The translations under genes and the position numbers were made by a program. Source: Polyangiales bacterium (lineage in GTDB: Bacteria; Myxococcota_A; Polyangia; Polyangiales; Houyiibacteriaceae). From it: a DNA stretch of 10,996 nt. Within the stretch, counting starts at the first letter, position 1, and the number at the start of each line of letters is the position of its first letter. Location: NCBI GenBank assembly GCA_045106895.1, contig JBGCFM010000126.1, positions 1 to 10,996 on the forward strand, written 5' to 3'. Positions 395-10,996 of this stretch are shown here, one piece after another. The notes beneath the pieces were generated by a model. The model was given only the letters and a program-made list of their open reading frames with translations, did no database searches and was not told where the DNA came from.

Positions 395-1786
395 CTAGTT
401 CTGAAGTGTGGTCAGGTTGTAGGAAGGCAACGAGTCCGTGTAGTTCGTGAAGGACTCGACGCCTTCCAGCGTCACGCTCACGACCTCTGCATCTTCCCCC
501 GCGGTGTGTCCGACGTGGAACATATCGTCGAACCAAACGCCCTGGCCCATGGAGAAAGCACCTTCGGATTCCCAGAGGGAGGTCGCGGTTCCGGCGGTGA
601 GGTCGACGAGGACGATCTCGTCGCTTGTGCCCGCGCCGAAGTCACCAAGGGCGAGGCCCACGATCTTGTCGGTGTCGACGGCGACGATGCTCCAGACCGC
701 CACGAGCTCGTCTTCGCCGGGCTGCCACATGGCGGTGATGGATCCGACTCCGTCGTCCGAGACGGCGAGGCGGTAGATACCGGAGGTCTCGCGGACGCCC
801 GGTCCGCCAAAGCCCACGGTGGAGTAACCCTTGCAGGCGACCATGATGTCCGTGCCGAAGCGCGCGACCTGGCCGCAGTTGGCGCCACCGGGAAGGTCCA
901 CGGCGGTGACTTCGAGCGTCGTGAGGTTCACAAGCGCGACCTGGCCTGGGCCAAAGCCGCGCGCCGCACCGGCTTGGTCGCCGGGGAGACGGTCGAGTCC
1001 GACGACGAGGGTGTTTTCGTTCGCGAGGACCATGCGGTCGGGGCGGGCGGCGATGGCGACGTCAACGACGGCGTCGCCTTCCATGCCGCTGACGGTTCCG
1101 CCGAACGCGCTCAGGTCGATGCGCATGCCGTTGCGTTCCATCGTCACGGGGTTGAAGCCGATGACATCGGAGCCGGCGTCTTCGGGCTCAGCGCCGGGGG
1201 CCGTGTTCGGATCGTAGCGCGTGACCCATGCGGTGTCCGGGCCCGTGACGGCGACGTCGTGGGGGTTGCCACCGAAGGAGTCCGTGCCGACGTTCAGCTG
1301 TCCGATGACGCCGCCGGACAAGCAGAGGTTCGTCACGACGTTCTTGCCGAAGCGATCGATGATGATGAGCTGGCCCGCCGGGGAAGCCTCCGTAGGAAAG
1401 ACCACGTCGCCGCCGAGGGTGGCGGTGAGCGATGGCGCCGTGGTGCCGCTGGTGATCCAGTCCGCCGCGGTCGTTCCGCCTCGGCTCACGACGGAGACTG
1501 CGGAGCTCGTAAAGTCGGTGCTGATCAAGGCCAACTGGGCGCCCTCGTCGATGGGGCTGAGGATCGCTTCGAGGCCGTCACAAGCGCTCACAACGGGTCC
1601 GGCGTCGGGGCCGCCGTCTACGTCGGGGCCGCCGTCTTCATCAGGGCCGGAGTCACCAGGACCGGCGTCGATGCTCAGGCCGTCGAAGCCGCCGTCCATC
1701 GGGACGCTGGAATCCATGCTCGCGTCGTCGTCGCCACAGGCGACCATGGAGAGAGCCAAAAGAAGAAGAGAAGTTATTCGAAGCAT
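395..1786 (-). CDS. Lipoprotein, predicted YncE/BtuG-like beta-propeller, partner of the cobalamin TonB receptor (463 aa)
   Basis: ATG at 1786-1784 overlaps the upstream TGA (TGATG), so it is preferred to the TTG at 1789. Signal peptide with lipobox (MLRITSLLLLALSMVA-C), acidic DGG/DAG linker, then beta-strand-rich blade-like segments (LIIIDR, NPHDVAV, AWVTRY, RPDRMV, IMVAC). Second gene under a B12 riboswitch. The fold is inferred. Confidence 0.75.
   Translation of the reverse strand: MLRITSLLLLALSMVACGDDDASMDSSVPMDGGFDGLSIDAGPGDSGPDEDGGPDVDGGPDAGPVVSACDGLEAILSPIDEGAQLALISTDFTSSAVSVVSRGGTTAADWITSGTTAPSLTATLGGDVVFPTEASPAGQLIIIDRFGKNVVTNLCLSGGVIGQLNVGTDSFGGNPHDVAVTGPDTAWVTRYDPNTAPGAEPEDAGSDVIGFNPVTMERNGMRIDLSAFGGTVSGMEGDAVVDVAIAARPDRMVLANENTLVVGLDRLPGDQAGAARGFGPGQVALVNLTTLEVTAVDLPGGANCGQVARFGTDIMVACKGYSTVGFGGPGVRETSGIYRLAVSDDGVGSITAMWQPGEDELVAVWSIVAVDTDKIVGLALGDFGAGTSDEIVLVDLTAGTATSLWESEGAFSMGQGVWFDDMFHVGHTAGEDAEVVSVTLEGVESFTNYTDSLPSYNLTTLQN
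1603..1637 (-). repeat. Short tandem repeat (17-nt identical copies, period 18) encoding the DGGP linker
   Basis: CGTCGGGGCCGCCGTCT occurs at 1603-1619 and 1621-1637 and encodes part of ...DSGPDEDGGPDVDGGPDAGP... Confidence 0.8.
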
Positions 1787-3729
1787 CAAAGGTCACTTTC
1801 TATTTGCAGAGTCGCCATCACCTGGCGGCCTGGAAGGGGGTATCCGATAAAGTCCTGCCCACGTTCATCGAGGGCGTCCCGAACGCTCAGGCCAAAGGCG
1901 AGTCCGTTCTGCATTTGAATTTGCCCGGCGAAATCGAGCCAGGTGTTCGCGGGAAGCTCGACGAAGTTCGCCGGGTCCTGAAAGAACGACGAGCGGTGTC
2001 GCAGCTGCACTTCGATGTGCGCGTTTCGTATGTTGCCCAGCGGGCCACTTTGAAGCCGCGCGCGGACACGTCCGCTGAGCGAAGGTCGCCAGTTGAGCTC
2101 CCGCTCGCGGCCGTCGTCGGTGGACAGCCAAGTGCCGTTCGCGTCGAGGACAACATGGCGCGCGAGGGTGAGCCGTGAACCGAACTCGGCTCCGGCGATG
2201 ATCGCTTCATCCACGTTTCGTGCGGCGGCTGTGTACTGGGAAGTGGGGATGAAGCGAATCAGGTCTTCGGCGCGCGTGTGAAAGCCGCGTACTTCAACGC
2301 CGACCTGCGCGAATGCCCCGGCGCTCTGAAGCACGATGCCAGCGTCCAAGGTGCGGCCCGTTTCGGCGCGAAGATCGGGGCTACGAACGACGGCGCCGCG
2401 ATCGCCAAGGAGCTCCTGGAGCGTAGGAAGCCGGCGCCCCCGCGAGGCGCTCGCGCTCACGGAGAGCCAGGAGACCGGCGCTACGAGGAGCCCAATGCGG
2501 TAGCTTGGCTGCGTGCTGGAGCTTGGGACCTGCGTGTCTGGGCCTGTCTCGCTGACGCGCGTTCGTTCGAGACGAATGCTCGGCCGCAGCTCGAGGCGGA
2601 CCGGGCCGAGCGCACCGTGAAGCCGAGCCTCCACACTGCCGAAGCCTGTCCAGCGTTGAACGCTGGGGAGCGAGGGGCCGACGGAGTCCGTGGGCGCGTA
2701 CCCGTCGAGGCGCCCGCCGCCCACGACGGTGATGTCGAGGGCGCGGTGGGGGCGAAGCACGCTCCCGGCGCGAATGAACCCGCTCGTCCATTGGTCCACG
2801 GCTTCTTCACGGCCAAAGCCAATCTCGTTGAAGCGGTCGCTGAACTTTCGCCGGTCGCTTCCCGCGCCGGCGGTGACGAAGAGCTCGTGGGCGCCCAGGT
2901 CTACGTCGTAACGGAGGGCGCCGAAGGTGTGTACGTCGTGGCGCTGCGCGTGCTGCGCGCGCGTGAGACCCGCGCCGGGTTCTCCGCCGAGGCGAGACCC
3001 CGCCATGACGAGCGCGGTGAGTCGACCCTCGTCGAGGTCGCGTTCGAGGAGCGCGATGAGCGCCGTGCGCGTTTGCTGCGCGTTGGCCCTGCGGAGCGTC
3101 CGGTCATCGTCGGTGTTGAACGCGGTGCCGTGGTCGTCCAAATAAGGGTAGTCGTTGTCGCTGCCTTCCAGGGCCAGGCGGGCGCTGAACCTCGTTCGGC
3201 CATGGTCGCGCACAAGGTTTGCGCCGCCGCCAACGCCCCACGTGGAGAACGTGCCTCCGGCAGCAAAAGCGCTCACGCTGGACTCTTGGGCGCGGTGAGG
3301 CTCTAGAACCAAGACCCCGCCGAGCGCCGCCGTGGACAGCTCCGCGGGCGCGCCGCCGCGATACACCCGGAGCGATTCGAACATGTGCGCGGAGAGCAGC
3401 CCGAGATCGAAGGCGCCGCTGTCTGGGCCTCGCAGGGGAATGCCGCCAAGGACGACTTCCGTCTGCGCGAGTTCCGCGCCACGCAGCCGCAAATAGCTCG
3501 CCGCGCCAAGGCCACCGGTCTGGGCGACCTGGGCTCCTGGCACACGCGCGAGGGCCGTATTCAGGTCGTCGCTCTCCTCGATCTCCACGCTGCTGCCGGC
3601 GGCGGTTCGGTCCGCGTCGTCGCTCGCCACCGGCGGCGCTTCGACCTCGGCACGTGCGCCGTACTGCGCATGGGTGCGTCCACTCCAGAGGAGTGCGAGG
3701 ACGGCCAGTAGTGCAGGGAGGTGTTTCAA
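1786..3729 (-). CDS. btuB: TonB-dependent outer membrane receptor, BtuB-like (cobalamin uptake), 647 aa
   Basis: TTG start with signal peptide (MKHLPALLAVLALLWSGRTHA-Q). Plug motif LARVPG...GGLG...LRLRG...VVLGGIPL...LRVYRG...ALGGVLVL; barrel motifs GRRLPTLQEL, PDLRAETGRTLDAG; terminal SVRDALD...GYPLPGR. The substrate is assigned from the cobalamin riboswitch directly upstream. Confidence 0.85.
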   Translation of the reverse strand: MKHLPALLAVLALLWSGRTHAQYGARAEVEAPPVASDDADRTAAGSSVEIEESDDLNTALARVPGAQVAQTGGLGAASYLRLRGAELAQTEVVLGGIPLRGPDSGAFDLGLLSAHMFESLRVYRGGAPAELSTAALGGVLVLEPHRAQESSVSAFAAGGTFSTWGVGGGANLVRDHGRTRFSARLALEGSDNDYPYLDDHGTAFNTDDDRTLRRANAQQTRTALIALLERDLDEGRLTALVMAGSRLGGEPGAGLTRAQHAQRHDVHTFGALRYDVDLGAHELFVTAGAGSDRRKFSDRFNEIGFGREEAVDQWTSGFIRAGSVLRPHRALDITVVGGGRLDGYAPTDSVGPSLPSVQRWTGFGSVEARLHGALGPVRLELRPSIRLERTRVSETGPDTQVPSSSTQPSYRIGLLVAPVSWLSVSASASRGRRLPTLQELLGDRGAVVRSPDLRAETGRTLDAGIVLQSAGAFAQVGVEVRGFHTRAEDLIRFIPTSQYTAAARNVDEAIIAGAEFGSRLTLARHVVLDANGTWLSTDDGRERELNWRPSLSGRVRARLQSGPLGNIRNAHIEVQLRHRSSFFQDPANFVELPANTWLDFAGQIQMQNGLAFGLSVRDALDERGQDFIGYPLPGRQVMATLQIESDL

Positions 3730-3835: not shown

Positions 3836-4026
3836 CTGGGTAGGTGTCCGGGCTCGTGGCCATGGTCTTCTCCGCCTTCCCACGCTTTCGCGCAGTGACA
3901 TATTGGAGAGGACATTGGGCCACATACCGTGGCGGGTCCGCGTCGGCGTCACACCGACTTCCCTATTCAAGGCCTGGTTTTCTCTCCAGTGCCCCTGTCT
4001 CCGACTTCGAAAAGTCATCGACCCAG
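3836..4026 (-). ncRNA. Cobalamin (B12) riboswitch aptamer
   Basis: The minus strand shows the consensus blocks in order: AATAGGGAA-gtc-GGTG..CCG (AGGGAA = 3964-3959), GCGGACCCGCCACGGT, GTCACTG (3899-3893), GGGAAGG (3881-3875) and the B12 box GAGCCCGGACACCTACCC (3855-3838). Probable closing helix CTGGGT (4026-4021) / ACCCAG (3841-3836). It lies upstream of a TonB receptor. Confidence 0.93.
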
Positions 4027-4036
4027 TTCAGGCGCC

Positions 4037-4065
4037 ACCCTGCGGCCACGTCATGCCTTGGTCAA
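4037..4065 (-). promoter_or_regulatory. Putative sigma70-type promoter for the riboswitch-btuB transcript
   Basis: TTGACC (4065-4060), 17-nt spacer, CAGGGT (4042-4037). The predicted start near 4030 falls just 5' of the riboswitch closing helix. Confidence 0.45.
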
Positions 4066-4070
4066 GGCAT
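4053..4070. promoter_or_regulatory. Perfect 8-2-8 inverted repeat, candidate operator
   Basis: ATGCCTTG-GT-CAAGGCAT in the divergent intergenic region, centred on the putative -35 box. Confidence 0.5.
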
Positions 4071-4096
4071 TCCCTTGTGACGCATCCTTGGCGACC

Positions 4097-4124
4097 TTGC
4101 AGTCGTCCTCTTGGGTGATAACCT
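4097..4124 (+). promoter_or_regulatory. Putative sigma70-type promoter for the leader ORF/czc operon
   Basis: TTGCAG (4097-4102), 16-nt spacer, extended -10 TG-A-TAACCT (4116-4124). It predicts a start near 4131, upstream of the SD GGAG (4159-4162) and ATG 4168. Confidence 0.45.
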
Positions 4125-4167
4125 TTCCCCTGTGCTGGGGACCCTGAATATCCGATATGGAGCGCGA

Positions 4168-4620
4168 ATGATCGCGCTTGGGGTCCTCGTCCTGTCGGTG
4201 TTTTTCGGGCCCGCTGTGCTCGGCGGTCCGGCCTTCGCAGACGCGGACTGTTGCGCCTCCTGTCACAGCGATGAGCCCGGCTCACAAACCGCGAACTACG
4301 CCAAAAACGTCCACGCGGAGCCGGACGACTGCTGTCCAAGTGCGACGACCAAGCACACTGCGAATGCCAGCGCTTCCTCGCATGGCCACTCGCATGCGAG
4401 TGACCACAGCGATCACAGCGACGACACGGCTCCCGATCATGACTGCCCCGACGACTGTCCGGGCTGCGATCTGGGGTTGAGTTTCGCCGTCACGATGAAC
4501 TCGTCTTTGCGCGTGAACTTTGTGCCTCTGATGTCGGACACCTGTGCTCTGGCTTCGCACGAGACGCCGGCGACGGGCACTTGCGCCGGCATCTATCGAC
4601 CGCCGCGATCTCTCTCCTAA
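4168..4620 (+). CDS. Small exported Cys/His-rich protein, DUF2946/CzcI-like leader ORF with C-terminal RPP motif (150 aa)
   Basis: SD GGAG lies 5 nt before ATG 4168 (preferred to TTG 4111). Hydrophobic signal ending AFA-D; 10 Cys and 10 His (CCASCH, DDCC, HGHSHASDHSDH, CPDDCPGC); ends GIYRPPRSLS. First gene ahead of a metal RND operon. Confidence 0.75.
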   Translation: MIALGVLVLSVFFGPAVLGGPAFADADCCASCHSDEPGSQTANYAKNVHAEPDDCCPSATTKHTANASASSHGHSHASDHSDHSDDTAPDHDCPDDCPGCDLGLSFAVTMNSSLRVNFVPLMSDTCALASHETPATGTCAGIYRPPRSLS

Positions 4621-4718
4621 CCAATTGCGCAGTATTTTGAGTTTGGATAGGAGTCGTCACTCGCTTCGGGCCGCCGTGCCGCGATAGCTCTGAGTGTGCG
4701 CTCCGCAGGGAGTTTGAG

Positions 4719-5939
4719 ATGTTTAGATGGAGCCTCATTGGCTTCCTGTGTGTCGTGTCGTGGCAGCTGCCGGCACGCGCGCAGGACCAAGCAATGGACA
4801 TAACGCTTGAGAGGGCGCTCGCGATGGCGCGCCAAAGCTCGCCCGAAGCCGCGGGCAGGGAGGCGCGCGCTCGTCTCGCTTCGAGTCGTCTCGAGGCGGC
4901 CTCCGTTCGCCCGTTCAACCCACAGATCTCGGGTTCGCTGGGCCCGCGCTTCGGTGAAGCAGGGACGAGGCTCAACGGCTCGGTGCAGATTCGGCAATGG
5001 TTTGAGTTAGGCGGCCAAAGAGGCGACCGCCAAGACATCGCTCGCGCCGGAGTCGAGTCCCAAGAAGCGCGAAGCGCTCGCCGGATGCACCTCGTCGAGC
5101 GTGATGTGAGCCTGGCTTTCTTCCGCGCTTTGTACTGGGAGCAGCGCGTGGAACTATTCGAGGAGAGCCTCCGCGTCGCGAACGCTGTCCTCGCGAGCGC
5201 GAGGAGTCGCCACGAGCTTGGCGACGCCGGCGGGCTGGAGTCGTCCCTCGCGACCATCGCCGCGGCGCGCGCTGACACGGAGATGCAGAGCGCCCGCGTC
5301 TCCTCGCTCCGCGCCCTTGGCGAGTTGAAGGTCCTCCTCGGAGTTCGCGCTGACGTTTCGCTTCGAGTGCGTGGAGACCTTCGAGCTCTCGGCGTGGCGC
5401 CTGTGGAGCCTCGACCTTCCGATGGTGCGGAGCGCGCCGATCTGCGTGCTTTGCGTGCCGAGGTCCGCGGCGCCCGCGCCGAGGCGGAGCTGGGACGCGC
5501 GAGCCGTTGGCCGAACTTCGCCCTCGGCGCTCGCTACGCCAGGGACGAGGCCGACGACGTTGTCCAAGGCATCTTCAGTATCCAGCTGCCCTTCTTCGAC
5601 CGTGGCCAGGGGGAAGTCGCCATCGCCTCCGCGCGCGAAGAGGTGGCCCAACGACAGCTCGAATCGGCGACGATGGCCGCATCCGTGGAGCTGGACACAT
5701 CTCAGCGTGCCGCGCGCGCTCTCTCCCGCGCCGCGCGCCAGTTTGAAGCCACGGGCTTGCCGGCGCTTGCGCGGGCCGAAGAGCTAGCGACGGGAAACTA
5801 CGAAGCCGGCGCGGTTCCCCTCGCGGAGCTTCTCCTCATTCGGCGTGAGCTCCTTCACGCCAGAACAACGTATCTCGACCAGCTCTTTGAAGCCGCAGCG
5901 GCGCAAGCCGAACTCGTCGCCCAAAGAGGTGCGCGATGA
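4719..5939 (+). CDS. czcC: TolC-family outer membrane efflux protein, CzcC-like (406 aa)
   Basis: SD GGGAG at 4708-4712; signal peptide; OEP motifs ITLERALAMARQSSP, NPQIS, IRQWFELGGQRG, RADLRAL, SIQLPFFDRGQG, NYEAGAVPLAELL. Upstream of MFP and RND genes. Confidence 0.88.
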   Translation: MFRWSLIGFLCVVSWQLPARAQDQAMDITLERALAMARQSSPEAAGREARARLASSRLEAASVRPFNPQISGSLGPRFGEAGTRLNGSVQIRQWFELGGQRGDRQDIARAGVESQEARSARRMHLVERDVSLAFFRALYWEQRVELFEESLRVANAVLASARSRHELGDAGGLESSLATIAAARADTEMQSARVSSLRALGELKVLLGVRADVSLRVRGDLRALGVAPVEPRPSDGAERADLRALRAEVRGARAEAELGRASRWPNFALGARYARDEADDVVQGIFSIQLPFFDRGQGEVAIASAREEVAQRQLESATMAASVELDTSQRAARALSRAARQFEATGLPALARAEELATGNYEAGAVPLAELLLIRRELLHARTTYLDQLFEAAAAQAELVAQRGAR

Positions 5940-6337
5940 CTACGAATACTGAATCCAGAACGAAAGAATCACTCATGTACTTTGCTCGACTCCGCTGTGC
6001 CCTTCGAGTCTCTTCACTTCTGACCTTGGCGCTCCTCGCCGCCTGCGAGGAAGTCCCAGAGCCAACAGAACAAACCGTGAATGCGGAAGAGGGCGTGCAA
6101 ACGAGCGCCGTCGAACACGCACCTGCCGGCGCCGTCCCGGGCTCTCACGAAGATTGGTGCGGAGGCCACGGCGTCCCGGAGTCTTTGTGCACGCGTTGCA
6201 ACCCGAGGCTCATCGGTGCGTTCCAGGCCACGGGTGATTGGTGCCCCGAGCACAACTTGCCGGAATCGCAGTGCACCATCTGCAACCCAGACCTGGTCAT
6301 CGAGCGTCCGCCCCGCACAAACGAAGCAGCCCCATGA
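5936..6337 (+). CDS. Small lipoprotein carrying one pair of C-x2-H-x6-C-x2-C motifs (putative periplasmic metal-binding accessory protein)
   Basis: ATGA overlaps at both ends (5936-5939, 6334-6337); alternative start ATG 5975. Lipobox LLAA-C (Cys at 6044). Contains DWCGGHGVPESLCTRCNP-RLIGAFQATG-DWCPEHNLPESQCTICNP at 6152-6289. Confidence 0.85.
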   Translation: MTTNTESRTKESLMYFARLRCALRVSSLLTLALLAACEEVPEPTEQTVNAEEGVQTSAVEHAPAGAVPGSHEDWCGGHGVPESLCTRCNPRLIGAFQATGDWCPEHNLPESQCTICNPDLVIERPPRTNEAAP

Positions 6338-8087
6338 AGCGCGACCGCGCTCAGCGCTATTCTAACTTCGCGCGCGTGCTCTTCCTGGCTTTGGCGCTCT
6401 GCGGCGCATGCGAAGAGCCCGTGCAGCCCGACGTGGAAGCCGCCGCTGCGGTGGAAGCCGCTGCGGCAGCATCTCACGCCGCCGAGCCACGCGCCGACGG
6501 CGCGTGCGAACACCACTTGCCAGCGGGGCTCTGTCCAAAGTGCGAGCCGTCTTTGGCGGCGGTCTACCAAGCCCAAGGAGATTGGTGTGACGAGCACGGT
6601 TTTCCGGAGTCGTTCTGTCCCGTGTGCAATCCGGGCGCCGTGATCCCGGCAGTGGACGCGCCCGCGCCTTCGGGTGGAACCACGCCAAGTGACTGGTGCG
6701 GAGGCCACGCCCTGCCCGAGTCCCAGTGCACCAAGTGCAACCCTTCGCTCATTCCGCGCTTCCGCGCCGCCGGCGACTACTGCGAAGAACACGGCTTCCC
6801 GGAATCCGTGTGTCCTGTGTGTAATCCTCAAACGCCGCCGGCTGGACCCGTCTCCGATTGGTGCGTCGAACATGGTCTTCCGGAGTCCAGCTGCACCTTG
6901 TGCAACCCCTCGCTCACTCCGCGCTTTGTGGCCGCCGGAGACTACTGCGAGGAGCACGGTTTCCCCGAGTCTTTGTGTCCCGTCTGCAATCCCCAAGCGG
7001 CGCCTCCTGGCGCGGAGCGAGCGTCCATCGAAGCGCGCGTCGTTCGCTTTCGCACGCCGGACATTGAATCGTCCGCCGGCATCGACACCGTCGTGGCCGT
7101 CGCCGCCGAAGCGTCGGCTTCCATCGAATGTACCGGACGCATCGCCTTTCACGGTGACCGCATTGCGGAAGTTCGGGCCATCGTCCCCGGCATCGTTCGG
7201 GGTGTTCGCGTCGCTCTTGGCGAGGAGGTCGAAGCCGGCGCTCGACTCTTCGACTTGGAAAGCACGCAGGTCGGCCAGACCCAAGGGATCCTCGTTGCTG
7301 CGCGAGAGCGCGTTCGAGCGGCGGAGCTACATCTCGCACGGCAACGTGAGCTACAAGGGAGAGATATCGCCTCGGCGAGACAGGTAGAGATCGCCGAACA
7401 AGAACTGAGCGTAGCTCAAGCCGAAGCGCGAACAGCCACGGCGACATTGCGGATGGCTGGCGCTGCGCGTTCGGGTTCGTCCGGTCGCTACTCTCTGACT
7501 GCGCCCATTGCCGGGACCGTCGTGCGACGGCCGGCGGTCATCGGGCGTTTGGCAACGGAGAGCGAATCCCTCGCGACCATCGCCGACACAAGCGTCATGT
7601 GGGTGATGTGTGACATCCCTGAAGCCGCCGCATCGCGCATCGCGCTCGGCCAGCGCGTCGTCGTGAACGTGGATGGTCAAGGAAGCGAGACCGTGGGCGA
7701 GATCACCTGGGTATCGACGGAAGTCGACCCTCGTTCACGAACCGTCACGACACGCGCCGAGTTGCCCAACCCCGATGGAACGTTGCGCGCAAACCAGTTC
7801 GCCCAAGCGCGGGTGCAAACCGGCGCGCCGAGGAACGCTGTGGCCGTTCCTCGTAGCGCCGTTCAGCGGGTAGATCACCTGGAGGTCGTCTTCGTCCGCG
7901 TCTCGCCCGGCGTCTTTGAGCCACGCGTCGTCGAGCGTCACGGTGGCGGCGAATCCGTACAGGTGGTGGGACGCGTTCGCGCCGGCGATTCCGTGGTCAC
8001 GACCGGCGCGGTGTTGCTTCGAACGGAGATCATGCCTGGCAGCATCGGGGCTGGCTGCTGCGAAGTAGAGACCGGAAGCGCGGACTG

Positions 8088-8088
<1 letters not shown>
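6334..8088 (+). CDS. czcB: RND periplasmic adaptor (membrane fusion protein), CzcB-like, with N-terminal Cys/His repeat array (584 aa)
   Basis: ATG 6334 overlaps the upstream stop (the ORF-track start at 6238 is unlikely). N-terminal anchor/possible lipobox LALALCGA-C. MFP motifs GRIAF..EVRAIVPGIVRGVRVALGEEVEAGARL, LTAPIAGTV, IADTSVMWV, VDPRSRTVTTRAELPNPDGTLRANQF, VAVPRSAVQ, GDSVVTTGAVLL. Confidence 0.9.
6499..6993 (+). repeat. Intragenic repeat array: three paired Cys/His modules (six motifs)
   Basis: Module A 6499-6633, module B 6691-6828, module C 6856-6993 (B and C are 165 nt apart). Consensus D[WY]C-x2-H-x-[FL]PES-x-C-x2-CNP; the first motif is one residue shorter (CEHHLPAGLCPKCEP). Confidence 0.92.

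Positions 8089-10996
<2,908 letters not shown>

Follow-up and report, generated by a model that had tools for sequence, protein, structure and literature searches.

The czc locus and its upstream gene

The stretch of DNA analysed here (the window) is a complete contig of 10,996 nt, JBGCFM010000126.1, in the 7.7-Mb assembly GCA_045106895.1 of a Polyangiales bacterium from the phylum Myxococcota. It carries a czc operon for a metal-efflux pump of the resistance-nodulation-division (RND) type. The subject of this report is the small open reading frame (ORF) directly upstream of czcC, called the sensor ORF after its proposed role, together with the RNA that links it to czcC's Shine-Dalgarno sequence (SD). 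The genes of the operon and the main features of the sensor ORF are the following.

4168..4620, + strand: sensor ORF, 150 aa (bias in G+C content at third codon positions, GC3; SD; homologues at 54–100% identity)
4444..4467, + strand: codons of CPDDCPGC, putative metal-binding motif (conserved Cys/Pro in the homologue alignment)
4594..4608, + strand: Y-R-P-P-R codons TAT CGA CCG CCG CGA, proposed pause or arrest site (invariant residues)
4719..5939, + strand: czcC-like gene for an outer-membrane efflux protein, proposed target (Pfam OEP, E = 2e-29)
5936..6337, + strand: second small Cys-rich, lipoprotein-like ORF with C-terminus IERPPRTNEAAP (homologues with RPP)
6334..10994, + strand: czcB adaptor gene and czcA, a CusA/CzcA-family RND pump gene (HlyD_D23, E = 8.8e-36; ACR_tran, E = 2e-261)

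The pump gene czcA matches TIGR00914 at 1070.6 bits (cut-off 701) and runs past the contig end. The N-terminus of CzcC, MFRWSLIGFL, agrees with homologous starts in at least 11 loci, and the spacer between the sensor stop codon and czcC is 98 nt. A gene for elongation factor P (EF-P) is present in the same genome.

The frame that ends at 4620 is open back to a TTG at 4111, and between 4140 and ∼4520 this frame has the highest GC3. An ATG at 4168, preceded at a distance of 5 nt by GGAG (4159–4162), gives a product of 150 aa; starts at GTG 4132 or TTG 4111 would give 162–169 aa. A reading of the ORF as a short leader peptide was rejected, because the frame is coding from ∼4140 and full-length homologues exist. 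The product has a hydrophobic N-terminus ending in AFA/DAD (with no basic residue before it if the start is ATG 4168), an acidic middle rich in Cys, His and Asp, the CPDDCPGC motif, and the C-terminus GIYRPPRSLS. The CxxC, C97-P-G-C100, precedes the Arg of RPPR by 43 residues, and the Pro-Pro pair occupies residues 145–146 of 150. In homologue alignment A1, R144, P145, P146 and R147 are invariant, as are C93, P94, C97 and P98; C93, C97 and C100 each reach 90% conservation or more.

Scans against Pfam and NCBIfam gave no named family for the protein. The sensor gave no Pfam CzcI match at E ≤ 0.01, and neither did 110 family members at E ≤ 1, the presence of PF28244 in the Pfam copy being unchecked. 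The ESM Atlas model of the protein is of low confidence (predicted template-modelling score, pTM, 0.13; mean predicted local distance difference test, pLDDT, 0.45); its nearest look-alikes are DUF2946 and CzcI clusters (0.93–0.95), which is a lead only.

When 1.84 billion cluster representatives were searched with a profile, at least 208 proved to belong to the family: 208 pass E ≤ 1e-3, 61 pass E ≤ 1e-10, and 4 pass E ≤ 1e-30. From this family, 154 sequences were examined. The pattern [FYW]RPP[RK] followed by 0–9 C-terminal residues occurs in 146 of the 154, with exactly three trailing residues in 96 of those 146. The eight exceptions include the single-residue variants FKPPR, FHPPR, FIPPR, FRRPR and FRPSR, and two sequences without a C-terminal end. 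CPxxCPxC is present in 103 of the 154 members. In 148 of the 149 members that could be scored, 39–50 residues separate the last CxxC from the Arg of RPP, the distribution peaking at 40 and 43. The mean column identity of the family is 17%, and the stretch between CxxC and RPP is poorly conserved. Where members carry a database name, it is "hypothetical protein". DUF2946 matched the family below threshold only, in 2 of 11 members (best E = 0.35) and in 7 of 110 (best E = 0.029); over 21 genomes, the window's own among them, it had no hit.

Genome searches turned the family up in 8 of 61 relatives at E ≤ 0.01. Within the class, 21 of 401 genomes gave a hit (E ≤ 0.001), and within the phylum 13 of 401 (E ≤ 1e-4); the window's own genome is part of all three counts. 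In the family of genome G137 it is present in 4 of 138 genomes, all among the loci already counted. A related-locus search with the narrow alignment A2 gave two metagenome and seven genome loci; L017–L019 were discarded as lacking the family ORF, and L013 and L016 are duplicates of L003 and L004. In Myxococcota the sensor gene lies directly before czcC or czcB. A czcC-like start lies 76–243 nt downstream of the sensor stop codon in 16 of 25 loci, and the others have a czcB-like gene or a small Cys-rich ORF there. In one locus (L021/L004, G040:C70) a remnant ORF of ∼40 codons (MFRRRLIGLLLG…, then a stop) stands in place of czcC between the sensor gene and a czcB-like gene, which looks like decay of czcC with the sensor kept.

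The first Arg of RPPR is encoded by CGA or CGT in the first 10 loci, codons that make up 15% and 17% of the Arg codons of the genome. Later loci of the class also use CGC and CGG, and other classes use AGA, AGG and AAG. A functional codon bias at this position was mostly dropped for that reason, and the CGA/CGT preference is probably inherited. Since the codons vary across loci, selection acts on the peptide.

RNA helices between the sensor gene and czcC

From the letters of the window alone, an earlier note had described an attenuator-like RNA switch in which a ribosome paused at the R-P-P codons (4597–4605) would expose the czcC ribosome-binding site (RBS). The segments on which this was built could all be verified in the sequence. 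Segment 1, CTCCTAACCAA (4614–4624), lies across the TAA stop codon at 4618–4620, and pairs with segment 2, TTGGATAGGAG (4643–4653), in 10 of 11 positions with a single A/A mismatch. Downstream follow GGAG (4650–4653, within segment 2), CACTC (4658–4662), GAGTG (4692–4696), CTCC (4701–4704), the czcC SD GGAG (4709–4712) and the ATG (4719–4721). The CTCC has two alternative partners, GGAG 4650–4653 and the SD. The minimum free-energy (MFE) structure and local folds, the latter compared with shuffled sequences as z scores, give these elements.

4614..4653, + strand: hairpin 1 (helix 1:2), CUCCUAACCAA with UUGGAUAGGAG, spans the stop codon (fold, z)
4656..4699, + strand: hairpin 2, central imperfect hairpin, CACUC/GAGUG plus inner pairs (MFE)
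4700..4713, + strand: anti-SD hairpin (3:4), GCUCC, loop GCAG, GGAGU; hides the czcC SD GGGAG 4708–4712 (fold, z)
4608..4612, + strand: 5' strand of the closing helix, AUCUC; partner GAGAU 4716–4720 across the czcC start codon (MFE)

Hairpin 1 (4612–4655) has a free energy of −13.9 kcal/mol and a z score of −3.42, and 1 of 200 shuffles is as stable. An ungapped partner of 10/11 within 3–50 nt was found at 2.7% of ∼30,000 random places in the same genome. The anti-SD hairpin (4700–4713), short enough that its stability had been called uncertain, reaches −7.2 kcal/mol (z = −2.0, 8 of 200 shuffles as stable); it is less marginal than feared. The central hairpin (4654–4701) is at chance (z = −0.29, 68 of 200 shuffles), and an ungapped helix test with 13 nt centred on the stop codon gave 10/13 for the window, which is not significant (background P = 0.24). 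The segments and helices as observed are confirmed as a real feature of the sequence.

A ribosome with the second Pro codon in its P site, plus ∼15 nt, was modelled by forcing 4594–4618 single-stranded. In the free ensemble, helix 1:2 has a probability of 0.83–0.90, 3:4 of 0.61–0.90, the closing helix, which covers the first two bases of the czcC start codon, of 0.83–0.90, and 2:3 of 0.08–0.15. Absent from the earlier note are this closing helix and a second OFF conformer, which combines 1:4 with 2:3. Upon masking, 2:3 rises to 0.94–0.99, while outer 1:2, 3:4 and the closing helix fall to 0.05 or less, the closing helix to 0. CACUC:GAGUG stays at 0.99 in both states, and the 2:3 pairing of GGAG 4650–4653 with CUCC 4701–4704 extends hairpin 2 upon masking. 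The pair probabilities thus flip in the way proposed in the earlier note, from 1:2 plus 3:4 in free RNA to 2:3 once segment 1 is masked.

The probability that the SD is unpaired changes from at most 0.01 in the free RNA to 0.36–0.46 in the masked RNA in three of four sequence contexts. SD accessibility, which the earlier note had expected to differ between the two folds, does change on average: the cost of opening the SD drops from 6.0 to 3.3 kcal/mol (mean of eight choices of 3' end). The cost is 3.1 kcal/mol with segment 1 alone unpaired, and 5.3 with only the closing helix masked. Opening the region from SD to AUG becomes 3.4 kcal/mol cheaper; among 120 dinucleotide shuffles of 4594–4706 the mean drop is 0.08 ± 1.72, and six reach 3.4. 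Deletion of 4560–4593 made no difference (7.43 vs 7.58), which ties the effect specifically to the last sensor codons. As modelled, the masking effect is moderate and context-dependent.

Conservation of the spacer and other features of the operon

The same-genus locus L003, whose sensor protein is 44% identical, keeps the four-segment logic with a different sequence. Its 1:2 helix is extended, GCUU-G-CC and GG-GAGU form a local anti-SD hairpin, and a 2:3 pairing takes the anti-SD once the end of the ORF is masked. The OFF form is mainly 1:4 plus 2:3 (1:4 at 0.36–0.62), and the probability of an unpaired SD rises from 0.15–0.19 to 0.26–0.61 upon masking. The expectation that the pairings recur in homologues is borne out in this locus as regards the logic; the exact helices are lost beyond the genus. 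In the models of distant relatives, the end of the sensor gene is paired directly with the SD, often through the RPPR codons.

A hairpin spanning the stop codon appears in local folds of L003, L022, L021, L023, L024, L015, L035, L036 and L031. In the 13-nt stop-centred helix test, L022 scores 13/13 (P = 0.0003), and L021, L023, L015 and L035 score 11/13, which is borderline (P = 0.048). For a core group of distant loci, RNAalifold gives a three-way structure. In it the SD (AGGGAG) is paired with C-UCC-CU, from the codons that follow RPPR, and there are also the stop-spanning hairpin and, after it, a GC-rich second hairpin. In the MFE structures of L026, L029 and L045 it is the R-P-P-R codons that pair with the downstream SD, CCU-CCN being complementary to GGAGG; in these predicted folds the arrest codons would double as anti-SD.

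A covariance model of the three-way structure finds 11 loci at E ≤ 0.003. Alignment A7, of 12 rows, is fitted to this structure model, contains one reverse-strand hit and excludes the window. It has 87.4% of its cells paired, against 78.1 ± 1.2% in shuffles and 37–50% in slid controls. Changes on both sides are seen in 15 of 27 pairs, against 5.2 ± 1.6 in shuffles (0 of 500 reach 15), and 11 of them fall among the 15 pairs of hairpin 2.

The dependence of the RBS on the ORF end was also measured over 21 loci, with a footprint from the aromatic codon to the first Pro codon plus 15 nt, two contexts, and shuffles; L034 and L015, with spacers above 200 nt, lay outside this test. With the footprint masked, opening the RBS costs on average 3.10 kcal/mol less; in shuffles the drop is 0.25. 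The drop exceeds the mean of the locus's own shuffles in 17 of the 21 loci, and in seven of them 0 of 20 shuffles are as high; over all loci, 81 of 420 shuffles reach the observed value. The Wilcoxon test gives p = 4e-5, which is overstated because the loci are related.

A second ORF with the same ending lies between czcC and czcB (5936–6337, + strand). Its RPPR codons are at 6305–6316, near the C-terminus IERPPRTNEAAP, and its TGA overlaps the czcB ATG at 6334–6336 (ATGA). The product has a lipoprotein-like signal and two DWCxxHxxPESxCxxCNP repeats that resemble those at the CzcB N-terminus. It has 878 homologues at E ≤ 1e-3, and RPP stands 1–9 residues from the C-terminus in 114 of the 120 listed. 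Since a ribosome held at this motif would cover the czcB RBS, its effect may oppose the first motif or be staged with it. In CzcB itself (6334–7200, + strand), ∼5 tandem Cys-rich repeats, DWCxEHGxPESxCxxCNP, precede the HlyD domain; by its sequence this is an unusually long putative metal-binding extension.

Upstream of the czc operon, and divergent from it, lie a cobalamin riboswitch (RF00174, 3822–4012, − strand, 83.2 bits, E = 8.9e-20) and the gene for a TonB-dependent receptor that it precedes (1786–3729, − strand). The riboswitch is the sole match in an Rfam scan of the window at E ≤ 1, and no family was matched at the sensor–czcC region. Downstream of the receptor gene, an ORF of 464 residues (395–1789, − strand) has no Pfam or NCBIfam match.

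A candidate nascent-chain metal sensor and its relation to known systems

From what the sequence shows, how far it is conserved and how the RNA is predicted to rearrange, we favour, with somewhat better than even confidence, a reading in which the sensor ORF encodes a nascent-chain metal sensor of the CutF/CruR kind, coupled to an ermC-like RNA relay that controls czcC. For this reading we infer arrest at RPPR, the dependence on metal and its sign, export of the protein and co-transcription of the operon. The ribosome would decode Pro-Pro (4600–4605) when the metal site, ∼43 residues back, has just left the exit tunnel, and metal binding or export status might lengthen the pause. The paused ribosome would cover ∼4594–4618, that is, the closing-helix strand 4608–4612 and CUCC 4614–4617 of segment 1. 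Helix 1:2 would then open, and GGAG 4650–4653 would take the local anti-SD, CUCC 4701–4704. This would free the czcC SD (4708–4712) and the AUG, so that czcC is translated and the rest of czcCBA follows by coupling. With no ribosome in place, 1:2 plus 3:4 (or 1:4 plus 2:3) would refold and hide the RBS. In the relatives the stalled ribosome would sit directly on the strand that pairs with the SD, whereas in the window's genus it would act through the change from 1:2 to 2:3. Because the target is an efflux pump, the expected polarity is that metal lengthens the pause and switches expression on.

Several results weigh against this reading. Two helices (1:2 and 3:4) exceed chance and total stability does not, with z = −0.05 for 4594–4724 (95 of 200 shuffles) and 0.03 for 4590–4740 (96 of 200). 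The RBS is hidden equally well by shuffled spacers: its sequestration in the free state costs 7.4 kcal/mol, against 7.48 ± 2.16 in shuffles, 42.5% of which reach that value. The exposure of the SD on masking, as claimed in the earlier note, holds in three contexts and on average, and fails in the fourth context, which includes 40 nt of czcC and in which the SD stays 0.01 unpaired and pairs with downstream coding sequence. There is likewise no gain in SD opening with 3' ends at 4748–4780, and in a single-context run of the window the cost went from 6.9 to 8.1 kcal/mol. In the 21-locus test, four loci (L031, L035, L033 and L011) show no gain.

Among the alignments, helix 1:2 of the window on the MAFFT alignment A3 (nine loci) is 50% paired, a value that does not stand out from its controls (71 of 500 shuffles as high; slid controls at 34–46%); the MAFFT register of the 3' strands differs from the structural register. 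The family RNA model scores 12.9 bits at the window site, with filters off only and by a local alignment that skips the interior and keeps the closing helix only, at the anti-SD:SD helix of the model. Pro codons are C-rich and pair with G-rich SDs anyway, so that the coupling may be partly a by-product of composition, an effect that the shuffles used do not remove. On the protein side, the signal peptide is a by-eye assignment only, and Pfam DUF2946 (PF11162) does not match the sensor protein. [FY]RPPR has neither the Ala/Gly of RAPP-like motifs nor the third Pro of CutF, and its stalling is only predicted. Taken together, the switch interpretation put forward in the earlier note is partly supported by the models.

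Three other explanations were considered. The conserved motif could belong to the protein and not to its synthesis: [FY]RPPR would then serve partner binding, sorting or proteolysis in a periplasmic metal-binding or pump-accessory protein without regulated arrest, and the spacer would provide ordinary coupling or mRNA stabilisation. This we judge unlikely, even though the aromatic residue and the flanking Arg/Lys are as conserved as the prolines, beyond the needs of EF-P-type pausing alone. It can also point to the second, unrelated Cys-rich protein of the operon, where RPPR stands only 8 residues after the last CxxC and which therefore has no ruler of 40–45 residues. The same may be said of CzcI of Cupriavidus metallidurans, which is encoded upstream of czcCBA and is described, in the accessible text of PMC9973294, as having no proline motif at its C-terminus. 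What tells against a purely protein-level role is that the motif is limited to the last 0–9 residues in nearly all members and that the CxxC spacing is fixed over a non-conserved linker, as a nascent-chain ruler predicts. The structure model of the protein is of low confidence, and in many loci the codons right after the motif pair with the SD of the next gene.

The output could instead be transcriptional, the ribosome at RPPR controlling the access of Rho or the pausing of RNA polymerase in the spacer and hence transcription of czcCBA. The precedent is CruR, the other characterised DUF2946 member, which according to the accessible text of PMC9426467 works through Rho-dependent termination, and C outnumbers G (42 vs 33) over the final 121 nt of the sensor ORF. 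The spacer has the reverse bias (G 33, C 24) and is almost fully paired by prediction, which makes it poor for Rho loading; it holds no intrinsic terminator-like site. The coupling of ORF end and RBS over 21 loci would be superfluous, and the polarity of CutF, in which metal means ON, is simpler for an efflux pump. We regard a transcriptional output as quite improbable. More improbable still is that the pairings are chance complementarities in a GC-rich spacer, and that czcC has a promoter of its own or is expressed through constitutive read-through. The chance-level stability of the whole element and the equal performance of shuffled spacers would fit that explanation. A scan of 3900–5000, limited for promoters to the sigma-70 consensus, detected no promoter-like site, in the spacer or elsewhere, and two terminator-like sites, both outside the spacer. 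Chance alone sits poorly with hairpin 1 (z = −3.42), the 10/11 helix (P = 0.027), and an ORF-end dependence within the top 5% of shuffles. It also leaves the conserved spacer architecture with compensatory changes in relatives, and the synteny of the sensor ORF across families and classes of the phylum, without a cause.

If the nascent-chain reading is taken further, [FY]RPPR might be a third type of arrest or pause motif beside the RAPP-like and PPP types. Its C-rich codons, with the next two or three, would double as anti-SD, so that the paused ribosome sits on the repressing strand. Used twice in a myxobacterial czc operon, before czcC and before czcB, it would let metal control an RND pump in stages and by translation alone, with no adjacent transcription factor on the 11-kb contig. 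This extension is tentative, and we lean towards doubting it.

Nascent-chain metal sensing has so far been demonstrated in two proteobacterial systems only, CutF and CruR. The present candidate would place the same design in another phylum, in a family missed by the Pfam model, with another C-terminal motif, a CzcCBA pump and an ermC-like relay. If true, the repertoire of arrest motifs is larger, and many hypothetical small ORFs before metal-efflux operons become candidate cis-acting sensors and not pump subunits. The fixed distance from CxxC to Pro-Pro would also provide a testable ruler for relaying an outside event back to the peptidyl-transferase centre.

In the ermC system, idle RNA has helices 1:2 and 3:4; a stalled ribosome masks segment 1, 2:3 forms, and the SD in segment 4 is freed. 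The leader, ermCL, is a short peptide, and the ligand is an antibiotic sensed in the tunnel. The predicted ensemble of the window shows the same four-segment alternation of 1:2 plus 3:4 with 2:3, and to that extent the comparison with ermCL-type attenuation in the earlier note is apt. It does not extend to the leader, which here is the 3' end of a gene for a putatively exported protein of 150 residues, nor to the ligand, presumably a metal that is sensed outside the ribosome. With such a leader, the closest analogue is nascent-protein sensing of the CutF/SecM type and not the drug-dependent ermCL.

CutF of Rhodobacter capsulatus (cutFOG, DUF2946) is described as exported co-translationally and binding Cu through CxxxC; it pauses, in an EF-P-sensitive manner, at a C-terminal proline motif (…GPPPRL), upon which a stem-loop shielding the cutO SD unfolds (PMC9973294 and bioRxiv 10.1101/2025.02.05.636593, accessible text). 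Like CutF, the sensor is a small, here putatively exported, protein with a Cys motif, encoded directly upstream of a metal-detoxification gene, and has a proline motif, an Arg and then 1–3 residues before the stop (PPPRL in CutF, RPPRSLS in the sensor). In both, an RNA structure in a short spacer shields the downstream SD and is opened by a ribosome at the prolines, for the sensor in silico. The sensor agrees with the definition of CutF-like proteins in the accessible text of PMC9973294 in its length (at most 150 residues), the position of Pro-Pro, the 98-nt spacing and, in silico only, the SD-shielding structure. The same text gives genes for OEP (CusC/CzcC) as the commonest downstream neighbours of CutF-like proteins, with spacers usually below 100 nt, and its lists are mostly of Pseudomonadota and Bacteroidota (PMC9973294). 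The sensor differs from CutF in its motif, [FY]RPPR with two prolines, in CPxxCPxC instead of CxxxC, in its phylum, in its target (an RND pump vs a multicopper oxidase) and in having no DUF2946 match. Moreover, with ∼105 nt between pause site and czcC SD, opening calls for alternative helices acting as a relay in place of direct melting of one stem-loop.

For CruR (Bp2923) of Bordetella pertussis, also a DUF2946 protein, a 162-bp intergenic region is described as the place of the Rho-dependent termination through which it acts (PMC9426467, accessible text), and arrest of CruR when Pro-Pro occupies the P and A sites as demonstrated in vitro (PMC12992588, accessible text). It resembles the sensor in having a CXXC and, a few residues before the C-terminus, an Arg/Pro-Pro motif, and in heading a metal-homeostasis operon on which it acts in cis as an upstream ORF (PMC9426467, accessible text). 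Its motif is RAPP, whereas the RPPR of the sensor has no residue between Arg and Pro-Pro; the distance from the end is similar. The spacing from CxxC to the motif, 43 residues in the sensor, is near to that described for CruR without matching it. A further difference is its output, Rho-dependent termination, with copper described as relieving the arrest and the importer being switched off, and CruR is also described as independent of signal peptide and EF-P. The core of RAPP-like peptides (the ApdA, ApdP and SecM class), R-[AG]-P-[PG], does not fit the R-P-P-R of the sensor. CzcI (Pfam PF28244) is, like the sensor, a small protein encoded directly upstream of czcCBA. In the accessible literature on CutF/CruR-type sensors, which leaves aside the large lists of PMC9973294, no RPPR motif and no Myxococcota family was found, and "RPP" occurs 0 times in the accessible text of PMC12992588. 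The proposed system is of a kind already known from CutF and CruR; it departs from them in the RPPR motif, the CPxxCPxC site, the missing Pfam match, the phylum, the geometry of the relay and the second RPPR-ending ORF before czcB.

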